From assembly GCA_026416715.1 (NCBI GenBank), contig JAOAEQ010000005.1, positions 1,190 to 65,189 on the forward strand: 64,000 bases of DNA, in the 5' to 3' direction. Source of the DNA: a bacterium. Its GTDB lineage: Bacteria > UBP4 > UBA4092 > JAOAEQ01. The first letter of the stretch is position 1, and every line of letters begins with the position of its first letter. Shown here piece after piece: positions 15,089-43,228 of this stretch. A model generated the notes under the pieces. The model ran no database searches. It was not told where the DNA came from and was given only the letters and a program-made list of their open reading frames with translations. The position numbers and the translations under genes are program-made.

Positions 15089-16561
15089 TTATGCTTGTAT
15101 GAGCTCACGGTTGTCTTCTAGAGAGACAACCCGAACTATATAATATCCTGTGAACAATAGAATCAGTACCGCTACTATCGGTAAACTTTTTATCCATATA
15201 GGTAAACTTGATTGCCAAAGTTGCAGGAAAAATAAATCGATTATCCCTTGCCGGACAATTTCCCAATATCCGATTAAACTCGAATGTGCTGGAATATATA
15301 ATGAATACCATAACGCAGGTACCTGGGTGAGTAACCAGTGATGATAATCCATAAAACTTACGAGAATAGCGGTTATCTGAACAAACATACCAACCGCAGT
15401 CAAGAGCACAATCCAAGCCCAGAACAAGGAATGAGGTTTTCTAATATACTTTTCAAATAACGCTAAAACTGGTATCAACAAAAATATATGGATTTGGAAT
15501 ATATGCCGGGGACCCCAACACCATCCACCTGCCCAGCTTTCCCATTTAGCGTAAAATAAAAGATATACTACCGCAATTGCACAGCAGAAGTAAGATTCGT
15601 ATCGTTTTTCCTGCCAGAATGTTTTCAGTGCGATAAAGAACAAAAGTATCGGTGGCGAAAAAAGAAAAATACTCCTTCCTGAACTGAACAACAATCCATA
15701 TAACCCATCCAATAACGGATAGCTAAAAGTTAATCCTTCGGATTCGTAGCCGGTTGAAGTTACCGAACCGAACCGCACGTAATTATATAAGGCAACTAAT
15801 CCGCAAAATAATCCTATCGGGATTAACCAGAAGATTATAGGTCGAACTGCGGATTTAAACCATCGGGATGGAGTAACTGTTGTTAACCCAAACAATAAAT
15901 ATCCTAGATAGAGCGGAACTGTGATGATACTATCGATTCGCGTAAAAATCGCATAGCCAAGTGCACTTCCCGACCAAAGCAACCACCGGAGTTTATTGGT
16001 AAGTTTATAGGAATATAAACTATAAAATGCAAATAAGAGTAATAAGGTAGCTAATGGTTCGGAAAAGAAAGTTTTTGCATGTGGCATTGCCATTGTTGCC
16101 AGTCCATAGATTAATGTTACCAACAATGCTGCGCGTTTTGTATACCCTAAAACAATCCCAAAATGAAATAATAATAAACAGGTTACAGCGGTCACCACCT
16201 GATTAAATCGCGATACCGCTAATCGGGTAACATTTTCATATAGAGTTCTGCCAGGGTACCGAAACACTTGATTCCAATCTGCAGGAATAACCTGCACCAA
16301 CCCTGTCCCGAAATAATACAATGGTACTGCTAACAACGGTTGACCTAATCCGTAATGACCATAATATCTACCGCTCGCATCCGCTTGCGTGAATCGATCT
16401 CCACCGGGGACTAATGGTTGAATTGCAAATCCCTGAAATTGCGCCATACTTTCTGCCGTCCGAAACATTATTTCTTCATCTGGCGAATATAAATGGCCGC
16501 CCATGATCAGGGTATAAAACGCAAAGAAGAACAAGAAAATAGCGAGATATAATAACTTCAA
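15089..16561 (-). CDS. GT-C-type polytopic membrane glycosyltransferase (PMT/ArnT-like)
   Basis: 490 aa, about 12 hydrophobic segments, DE motif in the first loop (YSPDEEIMFR); adjacent to a polyprenyl-P-sugar synthase. Confidence 0.6.
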   Translation of the reverse strand: MKLLYLAIFLFFFAFYTLIMGGHLYSPDEEIMFRTAESMAQFQGFAIQPLVPGGDRFTQADASGRYYGHYGLGQPLLAVPLYYFGTGLVQVIPADWNQVFRYPGRTLYENVTRLAVSRFNQVVTAVTCLLLFHFGIVLGYTKRAALLVTLIYGLATMAMPHAKTFFSEPLATLLLLFAFYSLYSYKLTNKLRWLLWSGSALGYAIFTRIDSIITVPLYLGYLLFGLTTVTPSRWFKSAVRPIIFWLIPIGLFCGLVALYNYVRFGSVTSTGYESEGLTFSYPLLDGLYGLLFSSGRSIFLFSPPILLFFIALKTFWQEKRYESYFCCAIAVVYLLFYAKWESWAGGWCWGPRHIFQIHIFLLIPVLALFEKYIRKPHSLFWAWIVLLTAVGMFVQITAILVSFMDYHHWLLTQVPALWYSLYIPAHSSLIGYWEIVRQGIIDLFFLQLWQSSLPIWIKSLPIVAVLILLFTGYYIVRVVSLEDNRELIQA

Positions 16562-24414: not shown

Positions 24415-25590
24415 TTATTTTGATGGGGATGATAAAAGTTGTCGGTAACAAGTTTCGATTGCAGCGACGTTCTGTTGAATATTAAAATGCTGCTCGAGTC
24501 GGTTACGACCTTGTTCTCCAAAGATTTTTCTTAATTCCGGACAATTTAGTAGTGTTTGAATTGCGGTCGCTAATGCTTCTACATCATTTGGAGGAACTAA
24601 AATACCAGTTTCATTATCAACAACAATTTCAGGAACGCCACCAACGTTACTTGCAACTACTGGTTTCCAATATAACATCGCTTCAAATAATACGGTAGGT
24701 AATGGGTCTGGCATAATTGAACTATGCACGATAATATCAGTCATCTGCATTAATATTGAAATATCGGTTCGATATCCGGTGAAAATCACTACCGATTGTA
24801 GATCTAATTGTTTCACTAATTGTTCAAGACACTGCTTATAGCCTCGTTCTCTCTCTTGAATAATATCACCGACAATAAGGAATTTTACTGGGATCTGCGT
24901 TCGTGAAATTAGTTTTTTTACTGCGGAGATAAAAATATGCTGACCTTTCCATTGCGCAATTTGACCAAACATACTTATAACAATTGCATCTGGCGGTATA
25001 TTGAGCTTACTTTTCGTTTTCTGAATTATCTCTTGGGATAGTTGTTTTGCTTGCAAGCAATCCATGCCATTATAGATAACCGTACATTTGTCTCGTGAAA
25101 CGCCTAATTCAATCAATCTGGTTTTAACAGCGTTTGAAACTGCGATAATCCGCGTTGCTAGACGTCCGGCAAATCCGATAAATTGCCGGTTAAACCAGCA
25201 GGGGGTAACGATATCATGCATATGCCAGATTATCGGCCGATGCATTAATTTAGCGGCAAAACCGCTGTATAACATTGCTGTAAACGAATTCGCATGCAGT
25301 AAATCTATTTTCTCTTTCTGAATCATGGTTTTCAATTGGGCAGTTGTTTTCCAGAAATTTGGAATATATAGTATTAATCGAATCGGATTATACGAACGTA
25401 CGAGCAACGGAATTTTAATTGGATAGGTTTTGATTCCAAGTTTAGTTATTTCAGATAACAATGTCCCGTCGGAGGGTGCAATTACGACCGGTTCAAATTT
25501 CGCTCGGTCAAGATGCGAAAGCAAATTCAATAGCACTCGTTCAGCTCCACTAATTTTTCCAACATGGTTTATATACAGTATACGTTTCAT
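24415..25590 (-). CDS. GT4-family glycosyltransferase
   Basis: GT4-like N-terminal domain (GKISGAERVLLNL) and C-terminal nucleotide-sugar binding region. Confidence 0.8.
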   Translation of the reverse strand: MKRILYINHVGKISGAERVLLNLLSHLDRAKFEPVVIAPSDGTLLSEITKLGIKTYPIKIPLLVRSYNPIRLILYIPNFWKTTAQLKTMIQKEKIDLLHANSFTAMLYSGFAAKLMHRPIIWHMHDIVTPCWFNRQFIGFAGRLATRIIAVSNAVKTRLIELGVSRDKCTVIYNGMDCLQAKQLSQEIIQKTKSKLNIPPDAIVISMFGQIAQWKGQHIFISAVKKLISRTQIPVKFLIVGDIIQERERGYKQCLEQLVKQLDLQSVVIFTGYRTDISILMQMTDIIVHSSIMPDPLPTVLFEAMLYWKPVVASNVGGVPEIVVDNETGILVPPNDVEALATAIQTLLNCPELRKIFGEQGRNRLEQHFNIQQNVAAIETCYRQLLSSPSK

Positions 25591-25708: not shown

Positions 25709-27022
25709 CTATTTCCTGTTAAATATAATGTTTTTCATATAATGAAAATCAATAAATAACGGGCGAATGTTGAATTGTTTGTTTAAAATAATCCAATAGA
25801 TCAATAAAACTGAAGCAGAAGTAATCAACGAAGTTATTGCTGCACCGAAAACGCCAAGTTTAGGAATTAATGCTAGATTAACCAGGATATTTATCACTGC
25901 GCCAAACCAGGTTAATTGCGCATTCCATTCTGGTTTTCCAATTCCATTAAATACACTTGCAGCAATCCGATAAAATGGATGCAGCAAACCCCAGAACGCA
26001 AACACTCGCACCAAACTTGCTGCCTCTTGATATTTTTCGCCATAAAAAACTCGGAGAATAAATTCAGGGAAAAAAAATAAAATTAATGTTACTGGGATAG
26101 CTAACAGAAATAAGAACCCTGATGCGGTTTCGTATATTTTCCGAATACGTTCCCGACTGATTTCTCCTAAAGACAAATCAATCTTCGCACTTTCTGGAAA
26201 TACAATTGCATTCATTGAATCATTTATCACGGTCGCAAAATTCGTGAATAAATGCGCGATATTATATACCGCGATGCTCATCGGACTAACCATAAAATAT
26301 GCCAGCATAAATAAATCTATTTTCGAATAGATTTGGACTCCGGCGCTATTGATAAACGAATAAGATGCAAACCGAGTAATACGTTTAAGCCATTCTATTT
26401 GTAGCTGATTTTTGAATTTTAGATACTCCCGTGCAAACCATAGTCCGGGAATTGAACTGATAAAATAACTTAATGCAACAATCCAGATAACTTCAATCCC
26501 GTTGGATAAATGCCCGGTAAGTTTGAAAAGAGTCAGAAAAAAAACAAAGTTACCTAAAACAAAACAATCAGTCCAAAAAACCTGTTTCAACTTTTGTTTT
26601 GCAATCAGAAGTTGGCGAATGAAATAATTGCATAATACTGCAAAAAGGATTAACGGTACCCAACGTAATAGAATCGCTAATCGTGGAACATGGAATATTG
26701 TCGCGATACCTTCGGAAAAGAAAAACAAGATACTTGATGAAAATATCGTCAGAATGAATTTAAGCAATAATGAATGGAAGTTTACGAGTGGAAGCTCAGA
26801 ATCATCTTTCTCTGCAGCGTATTTGATTAGCGCCTGCCCAATGGATAAATCACCAAACAAAATTAAAAAGACACGAATACTATCGCACAGAACCAGTACT
26901 CCATATTCTTCTTTTGGAATACTGCGTACTACCGTAATAACATAAACGAAAGAAAACAATGCTATGATGATACTATCTAAAATCGCATAAACACTACGAT
27001 GTATATATACATTAATTTTCAT
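25709..27022 (-). CDS. Wzx-like oligosaccharide flippase (MOP superfamily)
   Basis: 437 aa, about 12 TM segments, polysaccharide-biosynthesis-protein-like organisation. Confidence 0.65.
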   Translation of the reverse strand: MKINVYIHRSVYAILDSIIIALFSFVYVITVVRSIPKEEYGVLVLCDSIRVFLILFGDLSIGQALIKYAAEKDDSELPLVNFHSLLLKFILTIFSSSILFFFSEGIATIFHVPRLAILLRWVPLILFAVLCNYFIRQLLIAKQKLKQVFWTDCFVLGNFVFFLTLFKLTGHLSNGIEVIWIVALSYFISSIPGLWFAREYLKFKNQLQIEWLKRITRFASYSFINSAGVQIYSKIDLFMLAYFMVSPMSIAVYNIAHLFTNFATVINDSMNAIVFPESAKIDLSLGEISRERIRKIYETASGFLFLLAIPVTLILFFFPEFILRVFYGEKYQEAASLVRVFAFWGLLHPFYRIAASVFNGIGKPEWNAQLTWFGAVINILVNLALIPKLGVFGAAITSLITSASVLLIYWIILNKQFNIRPLFIDFHYMKNIIFNRK

Positions 27023-27140: not shown

Positions 27141-27929
27141 CTATTTTTTAGGTAATGATTTTTTAAGGTTGTTTTTTGCCAATAAAATTCTAAATGGACT
27201 TTCGATTTGTTCAATGTGACGAATAGAAAAACCCATTTTTTCAAGAATCATACGGATATTCTTTTTATTAAAAACATACCAATGGCCGTATTTAGTTCCA
27301 TACATGGTATTGGCATAGGTTATTTTTCCCATAGATAGTTTATAGATGAACCGATGGAAACTATGAATTAAACTGTCTTCACTTGGTGTTTCAATAACTA
27401 ATAACCCATCTGGTTTAATCCAATCAGCGATCTGTTGCAGGGAATGAACCGGTTCCGAAAGATGTTCTAAAATATTAAACATGGTTACAACATCGAAAAA
27501 TTCTTTGGGAAACTCCGCTGAATGTACCGATGCCACTTGAATCTGAATGTCAAATTGCTTTTTAGCAAACTCCGCTGCATACCGACTTATATCAACACCA
27601 TAGCATACCCATCCATGCTGTTTCGCGACATTAAGAAAATATCCGAAACCACATTCAACATCAAGTACCGTTTTGCCGTTAGTTTTTTTCAAACGTTCAA
27701 TTTTTTTTAAGCGATTTATAAAAGTGCGGTCGAAAATTTCACGGTTTAATTCATAGATATCCTCATGCCCACCATAGTGTTCAATGATTTCTTCTTGGAA
27801 CGTACCGTTTACATAGACCAATCCACAGTGAGGACATTCAACAACTAGCTTACCGGGAATACTATACAAGGGATGTGGCGGATATTTCTCATTGTCTTGA
27901 CAAATACAACATGGTTTAATATACATCAT
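27141..27929 (-). CDS. Class I SAM-dependent methyltransferase with N-terminal Cys4 zinc ribbon
   Basis: CCIC...CPHC zinc ribbon followed by methyltransferase motif I (VLDVECGFGYF) and later motifs. Confidence 0.75.
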   Translation of the reverse strand: MMYIKPCCICQDNEKYPPHPLYSIPGKLVVECPHCGLVYVNGTFQEEIIEHYGGHEDIYELNREIFDRTFINRLKKIERLKKTNGKTVLDVECGFGYFLNVAKQHGWVCYGVDISRYAAEFAKKQFDIQIQVASVHSAEFPKEFFDVVTMFNILEHLSEPVHSLQQIADWIKPDGLLVIETPSEDSLIHSFHRFIYKLSMGKITYANTMYGTKYGHWYVFNKKNIRMILEKMGFSIRHIEQIESPFRILLAKNNLKKSLPKK

Positions 27930-27935
27930 ACTCGT

Positions 27936-29042
27936 TTACTCTATTTTAAGAATTACAGATAAAAATTTATAAATATCCACTGTTTTTTCAATCGGTAATA
28001 AATGTTGGGCGATGATATTATTATAAAATAATACTCCTTTTTGGCTTTCTAATTCCGGATGATATCCATGCATCGCTTTCGGAATCTTCTTACCATAAAA
28101 ACTTGGGGAAAATACTAACCCTTCATTCAATAAGAAAAGAATATTACCAAATTTAGATGAGGTAAGTTTATATTGTAGTCGTTCTTCTGGAGTAATTATT
28201 CTGCCATACACTTGCTGATTGAGAAATTTTTCTAGTTCGGAACGTAGATTATTATCAAAAGTCCAAATACGCAGCATAGTTGAATCCTGTATATAGAAAT
28301 AACGCTCTGGACTAGGATTCCCAAACTCCGTTTCCATAATTAATTTAACTGATCCGGTAACATTCGTCATGCCATGATCGCTTATGACAACTATCTTTCC
28401 ATCTGGATATAACTTCTGATATTTTCCTATTAACGTGGAAATATTCGTATTCAACTCTTCTATTGCCTTTACATAATCTGACGTCCCAACACCTACCCGA
28501 TGCGTTATTCCATCTAAATCTACTAACCCGATAAATAACCGCGGATGAGATTCCATTGCGGTTAGTCCTGCGAGTGTCATTTTAGCATCGCGGTTAGGAT
28601 GTTTAAAATCAGGATATTTAATAACATATAAATCCGGATTCTGAATAAATAACGATGGAATATGATAGTTAGGCGAAAATATATCCGGCTGGTTCTGTAA
28701 ATAAGGTAAATAGTGGAATGGAATATTCCAAATGGGACCGAAAATTTTGTTTCCCAGACGATGTAAAACTCGGTCGATTACATAACATTTGCCCATTGGT
28801 GAAATGACCTTGAACAAAAACCGATATTTCCAGAACGGCGAATTAGTTCCGACATAAGTCCATTCACTGAAATATCCGAGTTCGTCTGGCATTTTCCCGG
28901 TAAAAAGTTCTGCCTGAATATTGATGCTATATCCAAACCCGGGAGTTAATGGAAGCTGAGTCACAAATTGCTTCGCAACTGCCATTTGTAAAGCATATTG
29001 ATACGGGAGACTATCAATGAATATAATGAGAAAATTAGCCAT
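27936..29042 (-). CDS. Alkaline-phosphatase-superfamily protein (nucleotide pyrophosphatase/phosphodiesterase-like)
   Basis: N-terminal IIFIDSLPY and VVISDHGMT metal-ligand motifs typical of the AP/NPP superfamily; no TM segments. Confidence 0.55.
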   Translation of the reverse strand: MANFLIIFIDSLPYQYALQMAVAKQFVTQLPLTPGFGYSINIQAELFTGKMPDELGYFSEWTYVGTNSPFWKYRFLFKVISPMGKCYVIDRVLHRLGNKIFGPIWNIPFHYLPYLQNQPDIFSPNYHIPSLFIQNPDLYVIKYPDFKHPNRDAKMTLAGLTAMESHPRLFIGLVDLDGITHRVGVGTSDYVKAIEELNTNISTLIGKYQKLYPDGKIVVISDHGMTNVTGSVKLIMETEFGNPSPERYFYIQDSTMLRIWTFDNNLRSELEKFLNQQVYGRIITPEERLQYKLTSSKFGNILFLLNEGLVFSPSFYGKKIPKAMHGYHPELESQKGVLFYNNIIAQHLLPIEKTVDIYKFLSVILKIE

Positions 29043-29188
29043 TGATGATTATTTAATGTCAAATGTTATAGCTCAAACCTTCATTGCTCTATAACCAACA
29101 AAAACTGGGAATAGATGTCGTCTGACATTGAACATTAAGTTTTGAACGTTTATTGGTGATTGAAACTTTGACATTTAAATTTGGTATA

Positions 29189-30556
29189 TTATCTTTCTAT
29201 GTGACCTTCCAAAATATAAGATAAATAATCTTCCTTTTGCCCGATGCTCTGATATAAATCCATTAAGAACCGACCAAATATTTTTCGTAACCAAATCCAT
29301 CGTTCTCCAATTGGGATAGATAAATCCATAAACTCTACCGGTAATCGGCGTAATGTTAATTGTGATACAAGCTGAGATGCTTTTCTTAAGTGGAATTCAG
29401 CTTCAGGTAAATCATTGATTATTGCTATCGCTCGGAAAGCAAAATGTAAATGATATAGGCAACTGATCATTTTCCCGATTTTCCCTTGCCAATACCAATT
29501 CCACCATCTATAAATTGTCCTTTGGTTGAAATGTTTTGCTACTAATGTTAATTCGTATACTTTTCGTCTGAATTTGTATTCATTAAACAACCGCGTTTGG
29601 TATTTTTCAAGGATGTTCGGTAGTTCAGTATCTGGAACTTTAATATTATTAACAGCTAACAGATGTTTACCTGCCTGGATAAAATACGCTAACGTTTGCT
29701 GGTATAACTGTTCTGTTGACTCAGGAAAAATGAACTTGAACTTTCCATCCAAACATTGATTTAGAAAATCTGGAAATGAAGAATTAAAATAACGCCGAAG
29801 TTGTAAATCTGGATAATGCTCACGAATATAATCGACTCGTTCTCTAAATGAAGACAATAAAACTTTTTCCCATGGTAGGAGATAAGTGGTTAAATCCAAT
29901 GAATTCCGACATAAAACGAAATTGAATAATTCTTGGTTATTATTTCCTTCCGTTCTTCCGTTTTTAGGTTTTGTAATCAGCCAGGATCGTGGTACATATA
30001 ACGCTATTGCCCATAATCTCCATAAAATCACTTCCGCTAATTCCCGGTAATCCAGATTATCGCAATTAATTTCCGGAATTTCTGAACGTATATCGGTTCC
30101 GAAGATAGTTTTCCCGATCTTTTTTGCTTCATAATGACGGATTAATGGCGGTAGTTGCTGTACCTGGCGTAATGAAATATAACTGCAATCAATATGAAAT
30201 AACGGGGAATTTTTATTCCATTTTTTTTCTAATTGCGCGAGTTGAACAAATAATCGCTTCCGTTCAGTGTTGCTAGGTTTTCTTTTCGATACGGCTAATA
30301 ATTCAATATCACTCCATAATGAAATCTGCCCATCAGGTTCAATCCGATAACTAAATTCACCTCGAGCGGTACTACCCAGCAGTAAAATAGATAGAATATC
30401 AGATACACTTTTCTCTGTAATAACTTGAATTTCAGATAAGTAGTTGTGAATAAGGGTAGGATAACCAAATTCATTGCAGAGCGATAGCAAACTCGATTGT
30501 TCCATATGAATGAATAAAATTACCGCTGATTTCTGAATATCTTTTAGTGGATTCAA
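29189..30556 (-). CDS. Hypothetical protein with Pol-beta-like nucleotidyltransferase motif
   Basis: 455 aa; LLLGSTARGE...SDIELL resembles an hG[GS]...DhEh nucleotidyltransferase core but with atypical spacing; the rest is helical and unrecognised. Confidence 0.4.
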   Translation of the reverse strand: MNPLKDIQKSAVILFIHMEQSSLLSLCNEFGYPTLIHNYLSEIQVITEKSVSDILSILLLGSTARGEFSYRIEPDGQISLWSDIELLAVSKRKPSNTERKRLFVQLAQLEKKWNKNSPLFHIDCSYISLRQVQQLPPLIRHYEAKKIGKTIFGTDIRSEIPEINCDNLDYRELAEVILWRLWAIALYVPRSWLITKPKNGRTEGNNNQELFNFVLCRNSLDLTTYLLPWEKVLLSSFRERVDYIREHYPDLQLRRYFNSSFPDFLNQCLDGKFKFIFPESTEQLYQQTLAYFIQAGKHLLAVNNIKVPDTELPNILEKYQTRLFNEYKFRRKVYELTLVAKHFNQRTIYRWWNWYWQGKIGKMISCLYHLHFAFRAIAIINDLPEAEFHLRKASQLVSQLTLRRLPVEFMDLSIPIGERWIWLRKIFGRFLMDLYQSIGQKEDYLSYILEGHIER

Positions 30557-30711
30557 AATAAGTGATAGGAACCATAAGCGAATTAAAAATATTTTGGGTT
30601 ACATATTAAGAATTCACCGTTGTACGATAGGTTAACCCAATATTAGATTCTGATTTATCTTAACGTTATAGTTTATCCAAAACTGCATTTTAAGTAATCA
30701 TCCAACTTCTG

Positions 30712-31683
30712 TTAGCGTATAATGGCAAATCCACCAACTTTAAACAATTCTAACCATAATGGTTCTAATCCACCCACTTCAAATTCTAGGGTAACATAAT
30801 TGTTCCGGGTAACGACCTTACTTTTCCAGTCAATTTTCTGGGCGATAAACTTCCTCCGAAATGCTTCTCCAATAAACTCGGCATCATCAATAACATCCTT
30901 AATCCTATTTATTTTGGCAACGTCAAACAGCATCGTTCCACGCAATCTATCCGAATTAATAATATCCATCTCAATCACAATACTACGAATATCTTCTGCA
31001 GAAAGTAACAAACTCATTTTCCATTTTTTCTCACGCAAAAGCAGGAATTTAGCAAAATGTTGGTGATTATTATTGCAAAAAATTATTATATCTCGTCGAG
31101 GTATTGAGCTGGCTCCTCCAGCTACAATATCCGGTACCGTGATTATATGTTTGATTTTACGCAAATAAACCTGAATGGTCGTTTGTATTGCCGCTAGGTT
31201 ATTCCCGATAATTAATTGATGGTCTAAAATTGCGTATCCAATCTTTTTCGTCCATGAAGTATCCGTCCCGTAAATAATCTGAAAACCGGATTCCGTATAG
31301 GTAGTCCAATTCGATTTTGCACCTAATTCATTACTCAATTTATTTTTTATAAACTTTATAAACTCAGTATTATTGTTAACTGCTTGCCGATAAGTTAATA
31401 TTACTATATATTGGAGATTATTAGGATCAGAATCAGGATAAAGTGCTGCTATACCGGAAACCGGTGTGAGTTTGGCTACAATCTCGCGTATCGAACTTTT
31501 TCTCGGGATAGTAACCCAGTTGTCAAATAGCCAGGATATTCCTGGGTCATTTGATTTGACATCTACTTTTAAATAAACAATTGCATTTGATGCCACTAGT
31601 ACTTGTTCTTCTGCATTTATCAGTCCAAAATATGAAAATAATATCACCACACTTACTAAAATTAATGTGTAATTCGGTTGCAT
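30712..31683 (-). CDS. Hypothetical secreted or membrane-anchored protein
   Basis: Start taken at internal Met (MQPNYTLILVSVVILFSYFGLINA signal-like segment); no recognisable domain. Confidence 0.45.
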   Translation of the reverse strand: MQPNYTLILVSVVILFSYFGLINAEEQVLVASNAIVYLKVDVKSNDPGISWLFDNWVTIPRKSSIREIVAKLTPVSGIAALYPDSDPNNLQYIVILTYRQAVNNNTEFIKFIKNKLSNELGAKSNWTTYTESGFQIIYGTDTSWTKKIGYAILDHQLIIGNNLAAIQTTIQVYLRKIKHIITVPDIVAGGASSIPRRDIIIFCNNNHQHFAKFLLLREKKWKMSLLLSAEDIRSIVIEMDIINSDRLRGTMLFDVAKINRIKDVIDDAEFIGEAFRRKFIAQKIDWKSKVVTRNNYVTLEFEVGGLEPLWLELFKVGGFAIIR

Positions 31684-31873
31684 ATTTGTTTTTTTATAAT
31701 AACACTTTTTAAAACATAAATATTCTATCATATCAATATCATATCACTACATCATTCTCTATCTTAGCACTTTTCTTTTCAAACAGTATTAGATTCTGTC
31801 CTTAAAATACTTTTCCTTAAAAAATTAATGTAAGTAGATAACAAAATAAATTTATTATCAGTTATTCTTTCGG

Positions 31874-34639
31874 TCATTGAAAATCTATCCAACCCAAATC
31901 AATCGCTTCTCCAAACGTACCCTCCCCATCTCGATAGAAACCAAAAATTACTTTATAAGAAAGTGGTTCTGCAATAATATCGTTATGAATAATAACATAC
32001 TTCCCTACTGGCCAATGAGTGGTAACTGGATAAGGATAAAAATCCCAATTCTGCCCTTTCATCTGCCTATTAGATTCTGGCAATAATCCCACATCTTCTT
32101 CTTTTACTCTGCCGTGAATATAAACCAACCAATCCTTTTCTAACGGTTGATTTACTTTAAACAAGAAATACAGTCGATATTTTTTAGGTTCTAATTTTTT
32201 TAAATACACGTCAATAAAAGTTATTGCTGGATGGATAACTTTTTCTTTTCCACTCTGATGTTTAATACATAATGTTTCGAAGCTAGATGCTATTTCCCTG
32301 TATAGTTCGGGGATAATATTTTCGTAAAAAGCATAGGTCTGTAAAAATTCACCTATTTCAAAAATATTTTTACTGATTGATAACTGTTTCCACCTTTTAT
32401 ACAGTAAACCATCAAGATTATCCGTTGCAAAATCAATCCACCCTAATGGAATCGGTTTCCCGAAGGTTTTTCCTCCTTTATAAAAGCCGATAACTATATT
32501 ATATGGAATTGGTTCTGCTGAAATCACTCTCGATACAATGATGCTTTCATTTTTCCGCCAAGTTGATGTAGGTGGATCTGGCCAAAAATCCCAATTTTGT
32601 CCTTTCCACGATTGTACTTTTTCTGGTAACCTTGAAACATCTTCTTCTGCCACTTTACCGTGAACATATATTGCCCAATCGGTATCCATAAGTTCTTCCG
32701 TTTTAAATAATAAATATAGTTTATATTGTTTTGGATCAATCTTTTTATAATAATATCCCAAAAAGGATACCGCTGAATTCACTGCGAATCCCTGATGTTT
32801 AGTATATTCGGATATTATAGCCCTATATTTTTTATCTATTTCTTGAAATAGTTCCGGAAACGCTCTCTGATTAGATTGATATAATGAACGAAATTCATAG
32901 ATTTCAAATGGATTATTACTTGCTAAGATACGTTGCTGAGTTTTATCGACCTCATTTTTCGAAATCGAATACAGATACCAACTATACCCGTCTATTGGTT
33001 GTGCACCGGCATCGATACTCTGGTACGGCGTTTTTTTACCCTGCAATAATGCAGCAAGTTTACCACTCCAAGTTAAACATGGATATTCCTCGATTCTCGT
33101 AAACGTTGTTTCGAGGGTTAGTCCGAAAAGATTCGGTTCTCGAGAAACATAATAAATCTTTTTAACTCCAATATAATTACTAGGCCAATCTATTAAAACT
33201 GGATTATTGCGTTTATAGTAATACGGCAAAAATTCGTTAAAATAAAGCATGATTTTCTGTTCATATTCTTCTACTTGTTTAACTACCACTACTGCACCAG
33301 TAGAAAGTTTCTGGTCTAATTCAGTTAGCAATCGCTTTTCAATAGTTCTTGCATTATATTGCACAAGAAATTGATAAAGGAAATTGTGATAATTAACCAC
33401 GAGAAAGAAAAATAAAAACAAAACGACACCTCCAACTATGACCATGCCGAATCTTCTATTATTTTTAGCATGAGCCCAGATGGGTATAGTAGAAAAAGCT
33501 AATATTATTGCCAGCAATGGTACCACCGGATACCAATATCGTAATGCTTGCTCCCACGAGGTACAAAGAATGCAATATAATCCTATAAACTCAATAATAA
33601 GTATTAGGAAAAAAGTATTCGATTTCGCAATCGTTTGCGTTTTTCCATAAATTCGTCCCCAAATATATATTCCTTTTCGCAGATATCCCAGCCGCACCAA
33701 TCCTAATAATAGAAAGGCAATACTGAGAATAATCTGGGTATCAAGCAATAAGATACTTCGAACCAACCACCATCCGTTACTTACCAAAAGTTTTAAAGTT
33801 ATCGTTGGGACACCGTATCCACCTCCTTGAAAGGCTAGTTTGACTCGGAAAAAAGTGTATAGCAATACTAAAATCAACGGTAGCAGGCGGAATAAATATT
33901 TTTTCGAACTATGGTTTGATTCTAAGATGATGAAAATTAATAAAAATATAAACAGTAAAATGATATTTATCTCTTTCACAATTGATAAGCCAAAATAGCT
34001 AATGTAAATGAGAAAAAGATTCAACCGCGATGTAGAACTAAATTCGCCATTGGACTGGACAATGAGTATCGCTATTGCATAGTTAATGATGGCTAAAAAT
34101 AAACCGGTATGTAATTCCACCGGAGCTAGTCTTGCTTCGGGGTTATTGGGAAAGAAAAAGAATATGAAACTAAATGTTAGAACCGGAATATTGAATGATT
34201 TAATTAGCCTAATGAAACAGCGATTGACATTATCTTTTCCCTGGTGTAATGATTGTTGCTCGTGATTGGTTTGTATGAATAAAGAAAGACATTTAATCCA
34301 GAAATAAAACGAAATAAGTTTTACTACCCAACGAAATGCATGATGTAAAACCGGATTTGGTCCAAACAAAAACCAGACAAAAAAGTTATAAATATAGAGA
34401 AACGGACGATATCGACCGGAACCCAAATTGATAAATGTATTGTTAACCCAAGCAGCGAATTCACTGGCATTTTCGGCCAACTTAACCACTTGCCAGTCAA
34501 TATAATCGTCAATAAGTCCAAACGGCGTTTTCAGTGAATAATATATTGCAGGAAGAAGGAGAACAAAAATAATTAGGTAGATTAACCAATTTAAGAAGTG
34601 CGTTTTCATACTCTTTCGATAATTTGAACTTTTGACCAT
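31874..34639 (-). CDS. Large polytopic membrane protein with tandemly duplicated C-terminal extracytoplasmic domain
   Basis: 921 aa; N-terminal about 420 aa with many TM helices; two about 160 aa repeats (FEIYEF...GWIDFATD and FEIGEF...GWIDFQ) sharing KGQNWDF and GWIDF motifs. Confidence 0.6.
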   Translation of the reverse strand: MVKSSNYRKSMKTHFLNWLIYLIIFVLLLPAIYYSLKTPFGLIDDYIDWQVVKLAENASEFAAWVNNTFINLGSGRYRPFLYIYNFFVWFLFGPNPVLHHAFRWVVKLISFYFWIKCLSLFIQTNHEQQSLHQGKDNVNRCFIRLIKSFNIPVLTFSFIFFFFPNNPEARLAPVELHTGLFLAIINYAIAILIVQSNGEFSSTSRLNLFLIYISYFGLSIVKEINIILLFIFLLIFIILESNHSSKKYLFRLLPLILVLLYTFFRVKLAFQGGGYGVPTITLKLLVSNGWWLVRSILLLDTQIILSIAFLLLGLVRLGYLRKGIYIWGRIYGKTQTIAKSNTFFLILIIEFIGLYCILCTSWEQALRYWYPVVPLLAIILAFSTIPIWAHAKNNRRFGMVIVGGVVLFLFFFLVVNYHNFLYQFLVQYNARTIEKRLLTELDQKLSTGAVVVVKQVEEYEQKIMLYFNEFLPYYYKRNNPVLIDWPSNYIGVKKIYYVSREPNLFGLTLETTFTRIEEYPCLTWSGKLAALLQGKKTPYQSIDAGAQPIDGYSWYLYSISKNEVDKTQQRILASNNPFEIYEFRSLYQSNQRAFPELFQEIDKKYRAIISEYTKHQGFAVNSAVSFLGYYYKKIDPKQYKLYLLFKTEELMDTDWAIYVHGKVAEEDVSRLPEKVQSWKGQNWDFWPDPPTSTWRKNESIIVSRVISAEPIPYNIVIGFYKGGKTFGKPIPLGWIDFATDNLDGLLYKRWKQLSISKNIFEIGEFLQTYAFYENIIPELYREIASSFETLCIKHQSGKEKVIHPAITFIDVYLKKLEPKKYRLYFLFKVNQPLEKDWLVYIHGRVKEEDVGLLPESNRQMKGQNWDFYPYPVTTHWPVGKYVIIHNDIIAEPLSYKVIFGFYRDGEGTFGEAIDLGWIDFQ

Positions 34640-36292: not shown

Positions 36293-37366
36293 TTAGTATA
36301 ATTGAATATCATCAATAAATATTTCGCAATTAACTCCGAGTGTATTGATTCCGATAACTTCCATAACCATATTTTTAGTACTCCATTGGTTTACTGGATT
36401 TAATGCGGTCGCAACTGCCTGTTGATAAAGATCATTTGCTTCAATTTTCGTCCATACTTTTGGTTGCAAACGGATAACAGCAGAAATTCCACCAGCTTCG
36501 GGTCCATATTTTGCTTGTGGTTCGGTTTTTTCATATCGAAAACTAACAACCAATTGCACCACTGATTCTTTGTTTGCATAAACGAACATTCTAACTCCAA
36601 CAGGATGGGTAAACGGCAGAAATACGACCTTCCCCCATAAATCTGGATTTTGTTCGTTATACTCAATCGAGAACAATTCGGATTTTTGACCCCGATATGA
36701 AAGAGTTGAACTTAATGTATGTGTTTTTATTACAGCAGTATTATTTTTTACCCAACGGTCAAAAACTGGTACACTTGTTCGCTCAAAATTTTCTACAGTT
36801 ACAAAAACATCGTGACCATTCCACAGGATATTTTTCCATGGTTTTAAAAAACTTTGATTAGCCATTTGTTTTAGTGTTGCCAAAGAAGCGATCGGATCGC
36901 ATGAGAGCATAGCTCCTAAACTATATGCATCTTCCGCTTCAACCCATTTCTTTTCAACAACATATACAGAAGCGATTGACCAACAGATAGTCTGCATTTC
37001 TTCACGGAAGCTTACCCAGTCAACATGAGTCGGTCGAATCTGCTGAAATCTATAAAACATATCGAGTGTTCGGGTATATTTTTTCTGCAAATAGTATAAT
37101 TTTCCTAAATAAAAATAAGCTTCTCGATCCTCTGGATTTATCTGAATAGCTTTTTCAAAGCTATAAATCGCAGGCAATATTTGTCCATTCTTAAATAACT
37201 CTTTTCCTCGAATAACCGCTACTTTGGGATCGGATAAAGCTATTTGTCGCATATATATTGAGCCCCAAAAAACTATTATGAGAAATCCAATAAGCAAAAA
37301 TAGCCAAATGATCAAAATTCCATTAAGGTTTAGTTTCTTCATATTGTTATTATTCGAAATAATCAT
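36293..37366 (-). CDS. Signal-anchored TPR protein with C-terminal domain shared with the C25-like peptidase at 39770-43228
   Basis: N-terminal hydrophobic segment, TPR-like repeats (REAYFYLGKLYYLQKKY), C-terminal about 170 aa (SYRGQKSEL...GINTLGVNCEIFIDDIQLY) homologous to the C-terminus of the 1152 aa protein; 4-bp overlap with the upstream gene. Confidence 0.55.
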   Translation of the reverse strand: MIISNNNNMKKLNLNGILIIWLFLLIGFLIIVFWGSIYMRQIALSDPKVAVIRGKELFKNGQILPAIYSFEKAIQINPEDREAYFYLGKLYYLQKKYTRTLDMFYRFQQIRPTHVDWVSFREEMQTICWSIASVYVVEKKWVEAEDAYSLGAMLSCDPIASLATLKQMANQSFLKPWKNILWNGHDVFVTVENFERTSVPVFDRWVKNNTAVIKTHTLSSTLSYRGQKSELFSIEYNEQNPDLWGKVVFLPFTHPVGVRMFVYANKESVVQLVVSFRYEKTEPQAKYGPEAGGISAVIRLQPKVWTKIEANDLYQQAVATALNPVNQWSTKNMVMEVIGINTLGVNCEIFIDDIQLY

Positions 37367-39519
37367 TCAGGTCGAAAATCTTCATTTCGAGTTAAAATAA
37401 CCGCATCAAATGTATGCCATACTCTCATATCTTTTGCAGAAACAGCTAAAATATTCTCGCCTTTATTCAATAATAAACTTCCACCAGTGAACCACCCAAT
37501 CTCTTCAGGAACCCAGTCAGGTTTAATAACAGTTTCTTCCCCATGATTGGTAGAAATAAAATATTCTCCGGCTTTGCGTATTCTTAGCCAAACATAATAT
37601 TTTCCTGTAATCGGTATATTAATGACAAATTGATGTTTTTTGTGCGAATATTCATTACATAATTCATCTTTCGGATTCCATTTAACCGCTTCAGCAGGAA
37701 AATAACTCCCTGAACTATCTACCAACCATCCCGAACCACTCGTTGCGCGCAGAACAATTGAATCGTTACTATAGATTTCCTGAACAGGTTGCAGTGGTTT
37801 TAACCATATTTGGATATCAAGCTCATTCATTAATTTCTTTGCATGAATATACGTTTCTCTTTTCGTCAGCGAGATATCGTCTATCGATTCGACAAACCGT
37901 TGAATTTTGCTCGAGGCAAAAACAATACTGGTAACCAATGAATAATATCCTTGACTCGTGACTTGAATTTTTCTGCCCGGATTAGTCTCAAAAGAAAATT
38001 TCCCGGAATTATCACTGGTGATCGTATCATAGATTATACCGGTATTGAGCAAACCTGTTCCTGGAGAAACTAATTTAACCACTGCTGGAATCGGGTTCCC
38101 GTGGACGTCGGTTACAACCCCAGTGACTTTGACTGAAGTAATAATATCAACCGTTTTTTCTTGTTTTGGCAAAAAATAAATTGGATTTGCTATCGCTACT
38201 CCAGAAGAAGAATCCAGTTGTACTAAATACCAAGCTTTTTCAGTTTCGTTAATTAAATATTCATACTGAAATTCTTTTTTTCGTTCCGGTATATACACCG
38301 TATTAATAACCATCCCATTTCGAATAATTTTTAGTTTTTTCAATTCATCTCCATACCCGGCAGTATAACATAGAATACGCATAGAATGTTGTTGTGCATC
38401 AGGTTCCAGAATGGTACCGGGTAAAAAGGTATCAATTGAAAATAGAAGCAGTGGTCCTGTAGTAGCAAAATTTTTCCCCTGTTTCAAATTCTGCATAATC
38501 TGATTATAATCAAACTTCTCGCTATAGGTATAGGTTCTACCCCATCCAATGTCTCCTCCTGTTTCTGTATCTAATCCTGTATCGCTATTCATCACTCCCG
38601 CAACTCGATATCCAGCGTTCAAAATGGCAAACCAGGTCTGAAGGTCTCTTTCATTCTCGAGAATCTCAATTGCATCAACTGCACCGCATACTACTGCTAA
38701 TGGTAATTCTCGCGCTAAATTGCTTAACACTGCATTTTTTCTATTATCTAACCACCAACGAGTAGGATGTGCAGCAATAAATACCGGATTATGCTTATTT
38801 GTTCGTTCCTCCTCACTTTGCTCAATCAAATGCCATCCTTCTTGTCCTATAAGATTTGGGAGATTTAACCGAAGATAATGGATTTTGGGAATTTTATCGT
38901 TATATCCTTTCATTTCGACGCCGGGTCGGCATATAAAATCTGTATCACTATTTTCATTACAGATAGTAAATATTTGGTCGTTGGTTAAATTTTTCACGGA
39001 ATCATAGAGTTGAACAAATGTGACATAATCTAATCCAACCGCTCGAGCTAACATAGCACCATACTGTATATTAGTAGCAATCCTTGCATTTTCTCGTCTA
39101 GCAACATGAATATGCGAATCACCACAATACCATTTGATTTGCGGTAAATTAACCAGGCGTTTTAATCTAACCAGAACATTCCTTCTCTGTGGTGATAATC
39201 TAACGATAACCTGTTGCGGCTGATATTCAAAGCCACGGCTAACGAAAATTTTCACTGTTCCTAATGGAAGAATGAAGTCGCCCTGCCCGTCGATAAAAAC
39301 CGCGTGATTTTGATAGGGACTTTTCGCGTAGGTTTTATTTTCACACTCAATGACTAATTTTGCGGGCATTAATTGGCCAGTTTCATGGTCAACAACTCGA
39401 ATTCGTAACTCCGCAGTTTTTACTTGGGATAATTGATGAACTGATGTACATCCTATCGTAACTACCCATATAAATATCAACCCTACATAAAAGAATTGCT
39501 TATAGGAATATTTCTCCAT
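37363..39519 (-). CDS. Putative lipoprotein: PHP/CehA-McbA-like metallohydrolase with Ig-like beta-sandwich domain
   Basis: Signal peptide with possible lipobox (VVTIGCTS); CGDSHIHV resembles the N-terminal H-x-H metal motif of PHP-type hydrolases; mid-protein CarboxypepD_reg-like segment (VTGVVTDVHGNPIPAVVKL). Confidence 0.45.
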   Translation of the reverse strand: MEKYSYKQFFYVGLIFIWVVTIGCTSVHQLSQVKTAELRIRVVDHETGQLMPAKLVIECENKTYAKSPYQNHAVFIDGQGDFILPLGTVKIFVSRGFEYQPQQVIVRLSPQRRNVLVRLKRLVNLPQIKWYCGDSHIHVARRENARIATNIQYGAMLARAVGLDYVTFVQLYDSVKNLTNDQIFTICNENSDTDFICRPGVEMKGYNDKIPKIHYLRLNLPNLIGQEGWHLIEQSEEERTNKHNPVFIAAHPTRWWLDNRKNAVLSNLARELPLAVVCGAVDAIEILENERDLQTWFAILNAGYRVAGVMNSDTGLDTETGGDIGWGRTYTYSEKFDYNQIMQNLKQGKNFATTGPLLLFSIDTFLPGTILEPDAQQHSMRILCYTAGYGDELKKLKIIRNGMVINTVYIPERKKEFQYEYLINETEKAWYLVQLDSSSGVAIANPIYFLPKQEKTVDIITSVKVTGVVTDVHGNPIPAVVKLVSPGTGLLNTGIIYDTITSDNSGKFSFETNPGRKIQVTSQGYYSLVTSIVFASSKIQRFVESIDDISLTKRETYIHAKKLMNELDIQIWLKPLQPVQEIYSNDSIVLRATSGSGWLVDSSGSYFPAEAVKWNPKDELCNEYSHKKHQFVINIPITGKYYVWLRIRKAGEYFISTNHGEETVIKPDWVPEEIGWFTGGSLLLNKGENILAVSAKDMRVWHTFDAVILTRNEDFRPE

Positions 39520-39769: not shown

Positions 39770-42700
39770 CTATTGGTTATTCTTTAAATATACTTTTAAT
39801 TTATTTGGTGGAAAAAACAATTCAATATCATCTACATATAATTGAACATTTCTCCCTCGAGTATTAATACCAAGATATACAATATGCATATTATCAATAT
39901 CCCAGCAATGAACATCATCAACTGATCTATAGGAAACAAATAAATCTGGATACACTCGAATATCACCACTAATATCCTTTTGTGATAATGCACGTTTTTT
40001 AGCAATTTGATAGAGGTCATTTATTTTTAATTCAATCCAATTGGAACTGATTGAATATGCTTGAGAACAAAACGCTTCGTTATGTTTTCCATTATAGGTA
40101 ACCGTAGCATTTAATTCTACCTTACTTTCGGTTGTTCCTCGTACAAAAAGACGAACTCCTATCGGACCGCGTAACGGTATGACAACCTCCTTACCCCAAT
40201 AATCTACCCAGCCTGGTATAGGATAGACTAAGTCAATCAGTTCACTTTTTTTACCCCGATGAGCATAGGTGGTTGAAAGGTAATGACCTATTATTTTTGA
40301 TTTATCACTCCAATGCCAATTTTTTAACTGCACCGCAGTAGCTGTTTCAAAAGTTTCGATTGGAACAGAGAGTTTCGCCAGGCGTTGAATCATTTTTAAA
40401 TCTCGGCATCCGTATTGAAATGCCTCGCTATATTTTAAGAGTGCATTTAGCATATCTTTTTGTTGATAAAATCTATCGCCGTCTTCCATGATTTGTTTTG
40501 CTTTTCTATCATTATCTATAGAAACTGATACAATAATATCCCGAATATCCTTATTGTTCATTGGCGTTACAGACCAAAGTAATCTTGGCAATAACGCTGG
40601 TAAACCAACAGTTTGCCCAACATTTATGGTATCTACAGTGGAAACTATTGTATATCCTATTGCATCCCACTTTGTTTTCTCATTCCATAAATAGCAATAA
40701 GCGATGAGTGTATCTTGTACGAAATGAGGTGGAATGGTCACTTTTGTGGTGAACTTTGCCTGATGATTTATGGTAATATTTTTTTGGATAACTAATTTCC
40801 CTTTTTCAGTCTTGATGATAACACTCCCTTTTGCAGGTCGTTTTCTATCCAGTGTTCCTGTAATTCGAATTTGAGGTTTAGATTTTATGGTCCGCGTTCC
40901 CTCTAATTGAACTATATCGTGAGGGAATGAAAGTTGTGTACCCGGATCACCTAACAAGACATAGGTAGCAGAAATATCAGGTAGTTTAATTTCTTGTTTC
41001 GCATTAATAAAAATATCACCAAGACGTCGAACATTCTTTTTAAACATCTGCGTGAACATTGCCCGGTCAAATGCATCGTTGGAAGAAACATAGCTTCGCC
41101 AAGTAGCGCTAATCACCGCTATCGCACCAGCGTTCGGTGTTTTTAGTAACACTTCACCAAGGCTATCATTATCAATATTATCAAAAACGCCGGTATAACA
41201 AGTTAAAGCGATTACTAATGGATATTTTCCATAGTTTTTCAATTGCAATATATTTTTTACTCCAAAAAAATCACGGTTATCTGGAACGACTTCTACTCCA
41301 TGTCGCTCTAAATCCATGCGACCGCTTTCCCAAACATATCCGCCGCCATGCCCAGTAAAATGAAGTATGATTCGTCCTTCGTTAATATTTTCAACAATAT
41401 CTTCCGTTCGATATTTATAATCCGGTGAACCACTTGATGGATATCTGCGATATACTTCATAATATGATGGCACATACGATTTCGCTAATTCTTCACTAAT
41501 CCCTTCAAACATCGGTTCTGGACTCGCTAAAAAGAATATCTTTTGACGCCATTGACCAAAGTTCGGCTTCTGTTCGTATTGAATAATTTTATTTACTACA
41601 TTAGTTACTTCTTCAATCGAATGCGCAGAAATCCTACCAATTGCCATTTCCGGTTTTGTTTCATCTTCGCCAACCGCGACAAACCAGTTATCTGACGCTG
41701 CTGCACCCATATATGTTGCCCAATAATACGTAGGAATATATAACCGAGCATGCGCTAGATTCATATTTCCGCGTAAATCAACACTAACATCACCGACGAG
41801 TAAAACATATCGCGGTCGTGGTTGCCAGTTGTAATAGGCATACTTGAGAAAAGACTTAATTGCTTTCGCATCAACTAATCCATAGTTGAAAGTATCATAA
41901 ACTTCTGATGTTTTGACACATTTTACCGTTAATCCGGTCTTCTTACGCCATGCTAACAACGGTTGAATTGCAGGATAAAAATCATCGTGCGTTATAACCA
42001 GATATTCCGCACCACTTGTATCTTGTGTTAAATCGTAATACATTATTTTTTCGATTTTAACCGGAGATTTTTTCTGCCTATCAGTTAGAGCAATGTAATG
42101 AACCGAACTCGATTCGTTATATAGTGTAAATTGTGCTTTAAAAGAACTTGAAGAATCAAGTGAACTTATTGTAATTGCAGGTATTATTACTTTCTTGTGA
42201 GTAATATCATATACATTAATATGTGGATTCGTAAACCCTCGAATTTCATGTTGGCTGGTAACTATATCATAGTTCATATTTATTGCGCTAAATACTAATT
42301 CATCGTTGGTTGCAATAAATGATTTCCAATAACTTAATTGAAATTGAACCATATAGATAACATCAATATCAGATGCTTGCCCAGTTGGATCACCAGATTT
42401 TCCAGGTAACGATATTTGCAATACATTATTCCCTGCCTTAAAAAAATTCATCGGAACCGTATTACATTGATAAGTATGTTTTGCCCGACCATACCACCGA
42501 GTTTCACCAACTCGATTTCCGTTTAATCCAATAACAACATAATGGTTTCCATACGAGACTCCTTGAAATACTATAGATAGTGAACAGAATAATGTTGGAG
42601 CTAAAATGGGATGGGTGATAGTAAACTGAAATGGATAATCATTCACCGGCGCAGCTATTTCCCGCCAATACCATAGATTTTGCTGCTCTTCTGTTTGTCC

Positions 42701-43228
42701 AGCAGCGGTTCGTGAATAAATAAAGGTTTCCTTACGAAATTGAGTATCTCTAAACATTGTTTTAGTCGAGAAAGAGATACTGGTTGCAAGCAAATGAGTT
42801 TGTTCTATATTCCAGCGTAATCCGGTTGATTTTCCCCAGGTTAAATAATAGACATTGGTATCAGAATATTCATCAGGTTCACCATCCGAATTACGATTTT
42901 TCTCGCCATAAAATTCAATATAATCATTGGTTCCATCTAAGGTATAGCGGGTTGTAAACTCAGCGCTACACAATATTGGGATTTCTCTCCCTCGATTCCA
43001 GAGCTGAATACTGTGAGGAGTAACCTGACTTAAATTACAACCGGCATCTGCTAAATCTCGATATCCGATTCGATAGATTCCATCTTCATCAATATAAATT
43101 TTACATAATTCGGTCGGACCCGACCCTACTCCATACAAACCCCAAGCTACTGAACACAGTAATAGCATTATTCCTATACCTACTAGTATTATTTTATTAG
43201 TTAAGCGCTCTCTTCTATATTGTTTCAT
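39770..43228 (-). CDS. Secreted C25-family (gingipain-like) cysteine peptidase homolog with C-terminal accessory domains
   Basis: 1152 aa; signal peptide; central region with candidate catalytic His (ILHFTGHGGG) and Cys (PLVIALTCYTG) in C25-like spacing; conserved YVLLVGD block; C-terminal about 180 aa shared with the TPR protein. Confidence 0.6.
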   Translation of the reverse strand: MKQYRRERLTNKIILVGIGIMLLLCSVAWGLYGVGSGPTELCKIYIDEDGIYRIGYRDLADAGCNLSQVTPHSIQLWNRGREIPILCSAEFTTRYTLDGTNDYIEFYGEKNRNSDGEPDEYSDTNVYYLTWGKSTGLRWNIEQTHLLATSISFSTKTMFRDTQFRKETFIYSRTAAGQTEEQQNLWYWREIAAPVNDYPFQFTITHPILAPTLFCSLSIVFQGVSYGNHYVVIGLNGNRVGETRWYGRAKHTYQCNTVPMNFFKAGNNVLQISLPGKSGDPTGQASDIDVIYMVQFQLSYWKSFIATNDELVFSAINMNYDIVTSQHEIRGFTNPHINVYDITHKKVIIPAITISSLDSSSSFKAQFTLYNESSSVHYIALTDRQKKSPVKIEKIMYYDLTQDTSGAEYLVITHDDFYPAIQPLLAWRKKTGLTVKCVKTSEVYDTFNYGLVDAKAIKSFLKYAYYNWQPRPRYVLLVGDVSVDLRGNMNLAHARLYIPTYYWATYMGAAASDNWFVAVGEDETKPEMAIGRISAHSIEEVTNVVNKIIQYEQKPNFGQWRQKIFFLASPEPMFEGISEELAKSYVPSYYEVYRRYPSSGSPDYKYRTEDIVENINEGRIILHFTGHGGGYVWESGRMDLERHGVEVVPDNRDFFGVKNILQLKNYGKYPLVIALTCYTGVFDNIDNDSLGEVLLKTPNAGAIAVISATWRSYVSSNDAFDRAMFTQMFKKNVRRLGDIFINAKQEIKLPDISATYVLLGDPGTQLSFPHDIVQLEGTRTIKSKPQIRITGTLDRKRPAKGSVIIKTEKGKLVIQKNITINHQAKFTTKVTIPPHFVQDTLIAYCYLWNEKTKWDAIGYTIVSTVDTINVGQTVGLPALLPRLLWSVTPMNNKDIRDIIVSVSIDNDRKAKQIMEDGDRFYQQKDMLNALLKYSEAFQYGCRDLKMIQRLAKLSVPIETFETATAVQLKNWHWSDKSKIIGHYLSTTYAHRGKKSELIDLVYPIPGWVDYWGKEVVIPLRGPIGVRLFVRGTTESKVELNATVTYNGKHNEAFCSQAYSISSNWIELKINDLYQIAKKRALSQKDISGDIRVYPDLFVSYRSVDDVHCWDIDNMHIVYLGINTRGRNVQLYVDDIELFFPPNKLKVYLKNNQ

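Follow-up and report, generated by a model that had tools for sequence, protein, structure and literature searches.

The 64,000-nucleotide (nt) stretch of DNA analyzed here (referred to below as the window) covers positions 1,190 to 65,189 of contig JAOAEQ010000005.1 from assembly GCA_026416715.1, a bacterium of the UBP4 lineage, and carries a polysaccharide locus containing four adjoining genes that a preliminary description had singled out as one poorly characterized block. We found that two of the four, encoding a nucleotidyltransferase-like protein (NT) and a phosphodiesterase of the alkaline phosphatase superfamily (AP), make up a real, conserved, and uncharacterized glycan-modification cassette. 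All four open reading frames (ORFs) were confirmed, reading in the same direction on the minus strand, and the product types first proposed for the flanking genes and AP (a zinc-ribbon methyltransferase, an alkaline-phosphatase-superfamily protein, and a secreted hypothetical protein) were supported by our domain and segment predictions (lengths in amino acids, aa):

27141-27929, minus strand: MT, an S-adenosylmethionine-dependent methyltransferase, 262 aa, with CCxC...CxxC cysteines followed by a Methyltransf_23 domain (E 4.8e-27)
27936-29042, minus strand: AP, an NPP/ENPP-type phosphodiesterase, 368 aa, matching PF01663 (Phosphodiest) at 30.9 bits versus a cutoff of 23
29189-30556, minus strand: NT, a nucleotidyltransferase resembling aminoglycoside nucleotidyltransferases (ANTs), 455 aa, with no family in Pfam, NCBIfam, or PADLOC
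30712-31731, minus strand: a secreted 339-aa protein with one N-terminal hydrophobic segment and no family match

The genes are closely spaced, with gaps of 6 nt between AP and MT, 146 nt between NT and AP, and 155 to 206 nt between the 339-aa gene and NT. Read from Met17, the 339-aa ORF becomes a 323-aa product (30712-31683), which is also the NCBI call. For NT, NCBI annotates a TTG start; translation probably begins at the ATG at 30505 (the Met18 position, giving 438 aa), because all homologues begin there. A scan of 24 to 36 kb for promoters and terminators yielded nothing exceeding shuffled expectation. The block had been placed at the distal end of the glycan locus; instead, Pfam scans of its neighbors showed that glycan genes flank it on both sides, in a minus-strand cluster extending from ~48.1 kb to ~12.7 kb.

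NT belongs to a large family for which we found no significant direct annotation with Pfam, NCBIfam, PADLOC, or phmmer against PDB sequences, and the source databases hold no informative names. A word-indexed search returned only 13 homologues, one of them the same protein from this metagenome-assembled genome (MAG), annotated "hypothetical." A profile search of 1.84 billion cluster representatives, by comparison, gave 1281 matches at E≤1e-3, of which 505 also passed E≤1e-10 and 212 passed E≤1e-30; almost every match was a full-length protein of 400 to 450 aa. Only 5 of 114 diverse members match PF18765 (Polbeta), weakly (best E 1.3e-4), so that no Pfam model covers the family.

The GSTARGE...SDIE motif noticed earlier in the 455-aa protein is genuine: G61, E67, and D83 are invariant among these 114 members, and S62, R65, S82, E85, F120, G153, and R180 are at least 90% conserved. 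NT thus has the hG[GS] motif of nucleotidyltransferases (L59-L60-G61-S62) and the [DE]x[DE] metal site (D83-x-E85), plus a third carboxylate, D123, which lies within a "PLFHID" consensus and is kept in most members (it is Ser in P0013). The NT family profile matched the AAD(9) sequence with an E value of 3.4e-4 over 55 residues, and the profile alignment puts the "PLFHID" strand on the "YIELT" strand of AAD(9), which carries the catalytic Glu of AAD(9)/AadA. The NCBIfam ANT_9 model, however, scored NT at only 12.6 bits versus a cutoff of 340 (E 0.062). NT is a remote relative of the AadA-type ANTs and a member of the Pol-beta nucleotidyltransferase superfamily, rather than of the ANT(3'')/ANT(9) family itself. 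We also compared NT by hhalign with PF14907 (NTP_transf_5), another nucleotidyltransferase of glycan loci, with a negative result. NT has no transmembrane segment and no signal peptide.

An AlphaFold2 model of NT built with the family alignment (pLDDT 85.1, pTM 0.86) bears out the suspected nucleotidyltransferase fold: an N-terminal Pol-beta/MNT-type domain carrying G61-S62, D83-x-E85, and D123 is followed by ~300 aa of helical, HEPN-like bundles. The atypical motif spacing remarked on in the preliminary description corresponds to the insertion of a conserved beta-hairpin, made up of strands 70-72 and 78-80, that separates the GS turn from the DxE strand. The strongest structural match was ANT(3'')(9) (score 13.7, 216 residues aligned), followed by AAD(9) (11.7), MNT (10.3), DrrA (9.9), a HEPN protein (9.1), HalB (9.0), KNTase and ANT(4') (8.9 and 8.2, respectively), and LinB (8.1); Foldseek was in agreement, with LicD and FKRP not among its matches. 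According to the model, therefore, the nearest structural relatives of NT are enzymes that nucleotidylate sugar or cyclitol hydroxyls. Like ANT(3'')(9)/AadA, AAD(9), and, more distantly, ANT(4')/KNTase and LinB, NT combines a predicted Pol-beta/MNT-type domain with a helical HEPN-like domain, and it shares with the aminoglycoside O-nucleotidyltransferases, which act on sugar or cyclitol hydroxyls, the GS...DxE motif and third acidic residue. It differs from them in its low identity (just 11 to 13%), its conserved beta-hairpin between GS and DxE, its ~190 additional C-terminal residues, and its location in polysaccharide loci with an obligate phosphodiesterase partner, as opposed to resistance cassettes.

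NT might also be taken for an inserted toxin-antitoxin or defense gene of the MNT-HEPN type. We consider this very improbable: the family alignment lacks a conserved Rx4-6H HEPN motif, there is no PADLOC match, tblastn found no copies in phage or plasmid collections, and NT always lies within glycan loci.

AP scores above the PF01663 gathering threshold and has an NPP-type fold; its best structural matches were ENPP6 (28.5), ENPP4 (28.0), ENPP7 (27.9), and Xac NPP (27.6), with much lower scores (comparatively) for iPGM (15.9), EptC/MCR-1 (about 14), phosphopentomutase (13.8), and PglZ (12.1). The bimetal site is complete (D10, D177, H181, D222, H223, and H325), with Ser39 as nucleophile and Asn41 adjacent, and all eight residues are invariant among 37 homologues. 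Altogether we recovered 142 AP homologues, including proteins from Chloroflexi, Deltaproteobacteria, Omnitrophota, and Promethearchaeota MAGs. Characterized NPPs are secreted or ecto-enzymes. AP, by contrast, has no hydrophobic N-terminal segment, signal peptide, or transmembrane segment, and there is no room for a signal peptide because a metal-binding Asp already occupies residue 10. AP is therefore predicted to be a cytoplasmic NPP-type phosphodiesterase, which is unusual for the subfamily. Besides its location, it differs from NPP/ENPP enzymes such as Xanthomonas NPP and ENPP4, ENPP5, ENPP6, and ENPP7 in having a Ser nucleophile in place of the usual Thr and in the translational coupling of its gene to a nucleotidyltransferase gene.

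We collected 50 related loci by exact-protein lookup from both the NT and the AP side and by scans of GTDB genomes and JGI metagenomes, and annotated them with hidden Markov models (HMMs) and phmmer. The GTDB scan alone recovered loci from Anaerolineae, Promineifilaceae, Gemmatimonadota, Longimicrobium, Acidobacteriota, and a Methanosarcinales archaeon, so NT-AP loci occur in several bacterial phyla and in an archaeon. The NT sequences form 43 clusters at 90% identity, 37 of which have at least 600 nt downstream of NT; leaving out an NT fragment (L027), 36 nonredundant loci were informative. AP lies directly after NT on the same strand in 32 of these (30 identified by script, plus L021 and L023, where ORFs are overextended as an artifact of high-GC DNA) and nearby in 35, and the NT stop and AP start often overlap. 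Conversely, when we searched from the AP side, the gene directly upstream was always an NT-family member. This near-obligate synteny is interrupted by a small PDDEXK_3 ORF between NT and AP in L001 and by a PMT_2-like gene in L016; in L051, AP is 6.6 kb distant and on the opposite strand.

The same comparison bears on the proposal that MT, AP, NT, and the secreted protein form a single decoration module whose genes would co-occur across genomes. That proposal was half right: NT and AP are a conserved pair, but the 339-aa protein and the methyltransferase are not part of it. None of the 50 loci encodes a homologue of the 339-aa protein, whose own homologues, some with DUF3352, adjoin unrelated genes in nonglycan contexts; the 921-aa membrane protein encoded next to it in the window, which we also considered as a module member, likewise has no homologue there. 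Methyltransferases like that of the window (E 1e-16 to 1e-24) occur in about 6 of the 43 NT clusters, at variable positions, so the association is weak; MT is a loose associate only, and could methylate the glycan or an installed phosphate. The synteny data thus largely refute the four-gene module together with the inserted-gene reading of NT discussed above, and we regard both as having very little chance of being correct.

Several individual loci showed further variation. In L001, the closest relative of the window locus (NT 62% identical), the PDDEXK_3 gene is at 1415-1834 and the methyltransferase is missing, indicating that the immediate surroundings of the pair differ even between close relatives. 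PMT_2-like GT-C genes stand beside NT-AP in L009 as well as in L016, with a faint PMT_2 match in L003. L035 (metagenome contig JACKQG010002584.1, 3-4298) contains a second, much more divergent NT'-AP' pair 4 kb upstream of a canonical pair: NT' matches the NT family at E 3e-12 and has a "GGFGRGEG" motif, AP' matches PF01663 (3.7e-24), and the pair is preceded by Udk and Wzx genes. The pairing thus reaches a distant part of the NT family.

A third gene, which encodes a specific GT4 glycosyltransferase and falls outside the four-gene block, travels with the pair. In the window it is separated from AP by the MT and Wzx genes:

24415-25590, minus strand: GT4 glycosyltransferase of the subfamily that co-travels with NT-AP (HMM and phmmer matches)
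25709-27022, minus strand: Wzx-type flippase (Polysacc_synt)

Elsewhere, this GT4 usually lies directly behind AP. The window GT4 matches those that follow AP in other loci with E values of 1e-43 to 1e-139, compared with 1e-9 to 1e-20 for generic GT4s of the same loci, and the subfamily is present in 15 of the 30 loci having at least 2.5 kb downstream. The conserved unit is thus NT, AP, and this GT4, with or without a nucleoside-type kinase. One protein from another organism (P0064, 914 aa) is a fusion of Wzx and NT, with Polysacc_synt_3 (1.4e-50) spanning residues 35-325 and the NT-family domain spanning 495-891, which places NT at the membrane.

Ten of the 43 clusters have a P-loop kinase gene near NT-AP on the same strand. 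The kinase gene overlaps the start of NT in L002, L005, L028, and L034, directly follows AP in L050, and is one gene off in L026/L029 and L035; the three kinases that we tested all pass the NCBIfam uridine kinase equivalog NF004018 (226 to 317 bits versus a cutoff of 180). In L044 and L045, the slot directly upstream of NT is instead occupied by a nonhomologous PfkB kinase, whose best solved relatives are bacterial adenosine kinases (4e3a and 3ubo) and ribokinases. Because two unrelated kinases acting on ribofuranosyl 5'-hydroxyls share one operon slot, a free nucleoside (or ribose) would be a metabolite or by-product of the cassette; the linkage data suggest a nucleoside by-product. Between Udk and NT, the related marine metagenome contigs L026 (616-1362) and L029 (1089-1835) also carry a conserved ORF of 248 aa that matches nothing in Pfam or NCBIfam and may be a further accessory component of the cassette.

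Two alternatives can be weighed against this gene order. In one, NT would AMPylate or UMPylate an assembly protein (GT4, Wzx, or Wzy) and AP would remove the nucleotide, in the manner of GlnE/GlnD, DrrA/SidD, or MntA/HepT. DrrA and MNT do appear among the structural matches, but the ANT enzymes give higher scores, and their alignment (216 residues) covers both domains; this scheme also leaves the nucleoside or ribose kinases unexplained, and strict one-to-one pairing with a biosynthetic GT4 in an operon would sooner be expected of an enzyme pathway. To our knowledge, no protein de-AMPylase is of the NPP type. Such a writer and eraser pair thus seems quite improbable.

The other alternative would have NT and AP make an unusual activated or phosphorylated sugar from soluble precursors, to be transferred by the co-travelling GT4. 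As a first example, a UDP-sugar hydroxyl would be nucleotidylated and then uncovered; as a second, an NDP-sugar would be cleaved by a pyrophosphatase and reactivated. The tight (kinase)-NT-AP-GT4 order, the coevolution of the GT4 subfamily with the pair, and the soluble, cytoplasmic nature of all the enzymes fit this idea, but AP is NPP-type rather than a phosphomutase, and the Wzx-NT fusion suggests that lipid-linked units are modified at the membrane. The fold of known NDP-sugar pyrophosphorylases is a different one, and as far as we know Pol-beta-fold nucleotidyltransferases modify hydroxyls rather than sugar-1-phosphates. The first example, moreover, overlaps the explanation that we favor below, differing only in the acceptor. 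Taken as a separate explanation, donor synthesis is unlikely.

The wider surroundings of the pair are those of glycan assembly. Among 106 flanking ORFs from 22 further loci, Pfam identified 40 GT4, 8 Wzy, 7 Wzx, 7 GT2, 8 methyltransferases, 3 PRK, 3 PMT_2, 3 sulfatases, and 2 PfkB, and the 25 most frequent families of this set included no NDP-sugar or CDP-alcohol synthetase. Because no conserved donor-synthesis gene stands beside the pair, the donor would be a common metabolite such as a nucleoside triphosphate (NTP).

This bears on a further alternative, in which NT would move a phospho-alcohol (glycerol-phosphate, ribitol-phosphate, choline-phosphate, or similar) from a CDP-alcohol to a sugar hydroxyl with release of CMP, as LicD and FKRP do, and AP would trim or edit the resulting diester. 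ENPP6 and ENPP7, which cleave phosphocholine diesters, offer an analogy for such trimming. NT shares with LicD, fukutin, FKRP, and CpsC a nucleotidyltransferase fold and a glycan-locus context, and these proteins set a precedent for enzymes of this fold, encoded in glycan loci, that install phosphodiester-linked substituents (PMC11666461, PMC6965139). NT nevertheless shows no PF04991/FKRP sequence similarity (hhalign probability 0.1 for LicD) and no specific structural similarity to LicD/FKRP, and it has a DxE rather than a DxD motif. A CDP-alcohol supply gene is not conserved beside the pair, and the nucleoside-type operon kinases would go unexplained. We therefore view a LicD/FKRP-like activity as unlikely.

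Taken together, the NT-AP pair probably attaches a phosphate-type group to a sugar via an unusual two-step route. Our preferred reading, to which we give a probability of about 0.38, is that the cassette, situated in a Wzx/Wzy-type polysaccharide locus and provided with a dedicated GT4, phosphorylates a sugar by O-nucleotidylation followed by expulsion of the nucleoside. In the first step, NT would O-nucleotidylate a sugar hydroxyl from an NTP (probably UTP or CTP in many lineages), giving a sugar-O-P-O-5'-nucleoside and pyrophosphate; the acceptor would be a lipid-linked (undecaprenyl diphosphate) repeat unit at the cytoplasmic face, or a sugar handled by the partner GT4. In the second step, the Ser nucleophile of AP would attack the phosphodiester and expel the nucleoside, such that the phosphate stays on the sugar as a monoester, or possibly as a cyclic or further substituted phosphate. 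Where present, the neighboring uridine kinase or ribokinase/adenosine-kinase-like PfkB protein would then rephosphorylate the freed nucleoside. We infer the acceptor, the nucleotide, the bond cut by the phosphodiesterase, and the final substituent, and this three-step scheme is the most economical reading that uses all of the linked genes.

Several points weigh against this scheme. Characterized NPPs normally release a 5'-nucleotide plus an alcohol, which on a nucleotidylated sugar would erase the modification, and nucleotidyltransferase-fold enzymes in glycan pathways can be phospho-alcohol transferases (LicD/FKRP). A simple kinase would phosphorylate a sugar more cheaply, the NT-AP route being energetically costly. 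Nucleoside release by AP is assumed because of the kinase linkage, yet the kinases are accessory, being present in just about one-third of loci, and the window itself has no nucleoside-type kinase. One locus (L011), the sole such case, has NT and GT4 without AP, though the MAG that it comes from also has the full set at L017. All recovered loci come from MAGs or metagenomes, none from a cultured organism. Finally, a Udk gene in a glycan locus may have the alternative role of supplying pyrimidine for UDP-sugars (PMC5863508).

In its logic only, the proposed route would resemble mannose-6-phosphate tagging by N-acetylglucosamine (GlcNAc)-1-phosphotransferase and the "uncovering enzyme," in which a phosphodiester is placed on a hydroxyl and the cover is removed to leave a sugar phosphate; the proteins are unrelated, the compartment is another one, and the covering group is GlcNAc instead of a nucleoside. 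As a tentative generalization, which is possible but less probable than the scheme for this locus, we suggest a hitherto unrecognized "nucleotidylate-then-uncover" route for the phosphorylation or cyclic phosphorylation of surface glycans, combining ANT-like transfer of UMP, CMP, or AMP with NPP-type nucleoside expulsion and salvage by an operon kinase.

The remainder of the window locus includes other unusual genes. Downstream of the four-gene block are the Wzx and GT4 genes listed above, then Wzy, two further GT4s, an epimerase, Bac_transf, Wzz, a PMT_2-like GT-C (a PMT_2/LA_3751-like protein at 15089-16561, minus strand), a GT2, and a B12-radical SAM enzyme. Upstream lie the 921-aa membrane protein, a GT2, a TPR protein, a CehA/McbA-type hydrolase, two Peptidase_C25 proteins, and two GDP-mannose-dehydratase-like enzymes. 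The 921-aa protein (31874-34639, minus strand) matches no Pfam or NCBIfam family. At least 10 transmembrane segments are predicted within residues 1-412, and its C-terminus is duplicated in tandem (the copies, at residues 566-737 and 748-920, are 41% identical, E 8e-51) with "NWDFWPDPP...GWIDF" repeats; this membrane protein may be GT-C-like or handle polymers, and may carry a novel soluble repeat. The two large, tandem Peptidase_C25 (gingipain-like) proteins (39770-43228 and 43241-45886, minus strand; E 5e-89 and 2e-76) lie within the glycan locus and adjoin the CehA/McbA-type metallohydrolase, which has a CarboxypepD_reg domain (37363-39519), and the TPR protein; all are unusual neighbors for Wzx/Wzy genes.

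Beyond the cluster, a 756-aa ORF (49295-51565, plus strand) overlaps the end of an LptF/LptG permease gene (48324-49448) and has only faint LptA/LptC-like matches (E 0.0075 to 0.015); it may represent an LptG with an unusual periplasmic extension that is either fused to it or encoded after it. The LptF/LptG permease region indicates a diderm host. Near the start of the window, 1173-3251 (plus strand) encodes a TMEM260-like protein O-mannosyltransferase with C-terminal TPRs (E 3.4e-37).

In the literature on nucleotidyltransferase plus NPP glycan systems, uridine kinase in exopolysaccharide clusters, and cyclic-phosphate biosynthesis genes, we found no description of the NT-AP pair. Phosphate-containing substituents influence how surface polysaccharides are charged, how antigenic they are, and how phages or the immune system recognize them, and the routes recognized so far are kinases, CDP-alcohol transferases (LicD and TagF), and lipid-donor transferases of the alkaline phosphatase superfamily (EptA and LtaS). 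If our reading is true, a conserved nucleotidyltransferase plus NPP cassette would be an additional route to phosphate-bearing glycans. The NT-AP-GT4 synteny also provides a simple annotation rule for genes now labeled "hypothetical" or "alkaline phosphatase family protein." The aminoglycoside O-nucleotidyltransferases would likewise gain a plausible housekeeping relative acting on sugars, and the nucleotidylate-then-uncover route, if it operates, would suggest that aminoglycoside nucleotidyltransferases have a physiological ancestry in glycan modification.

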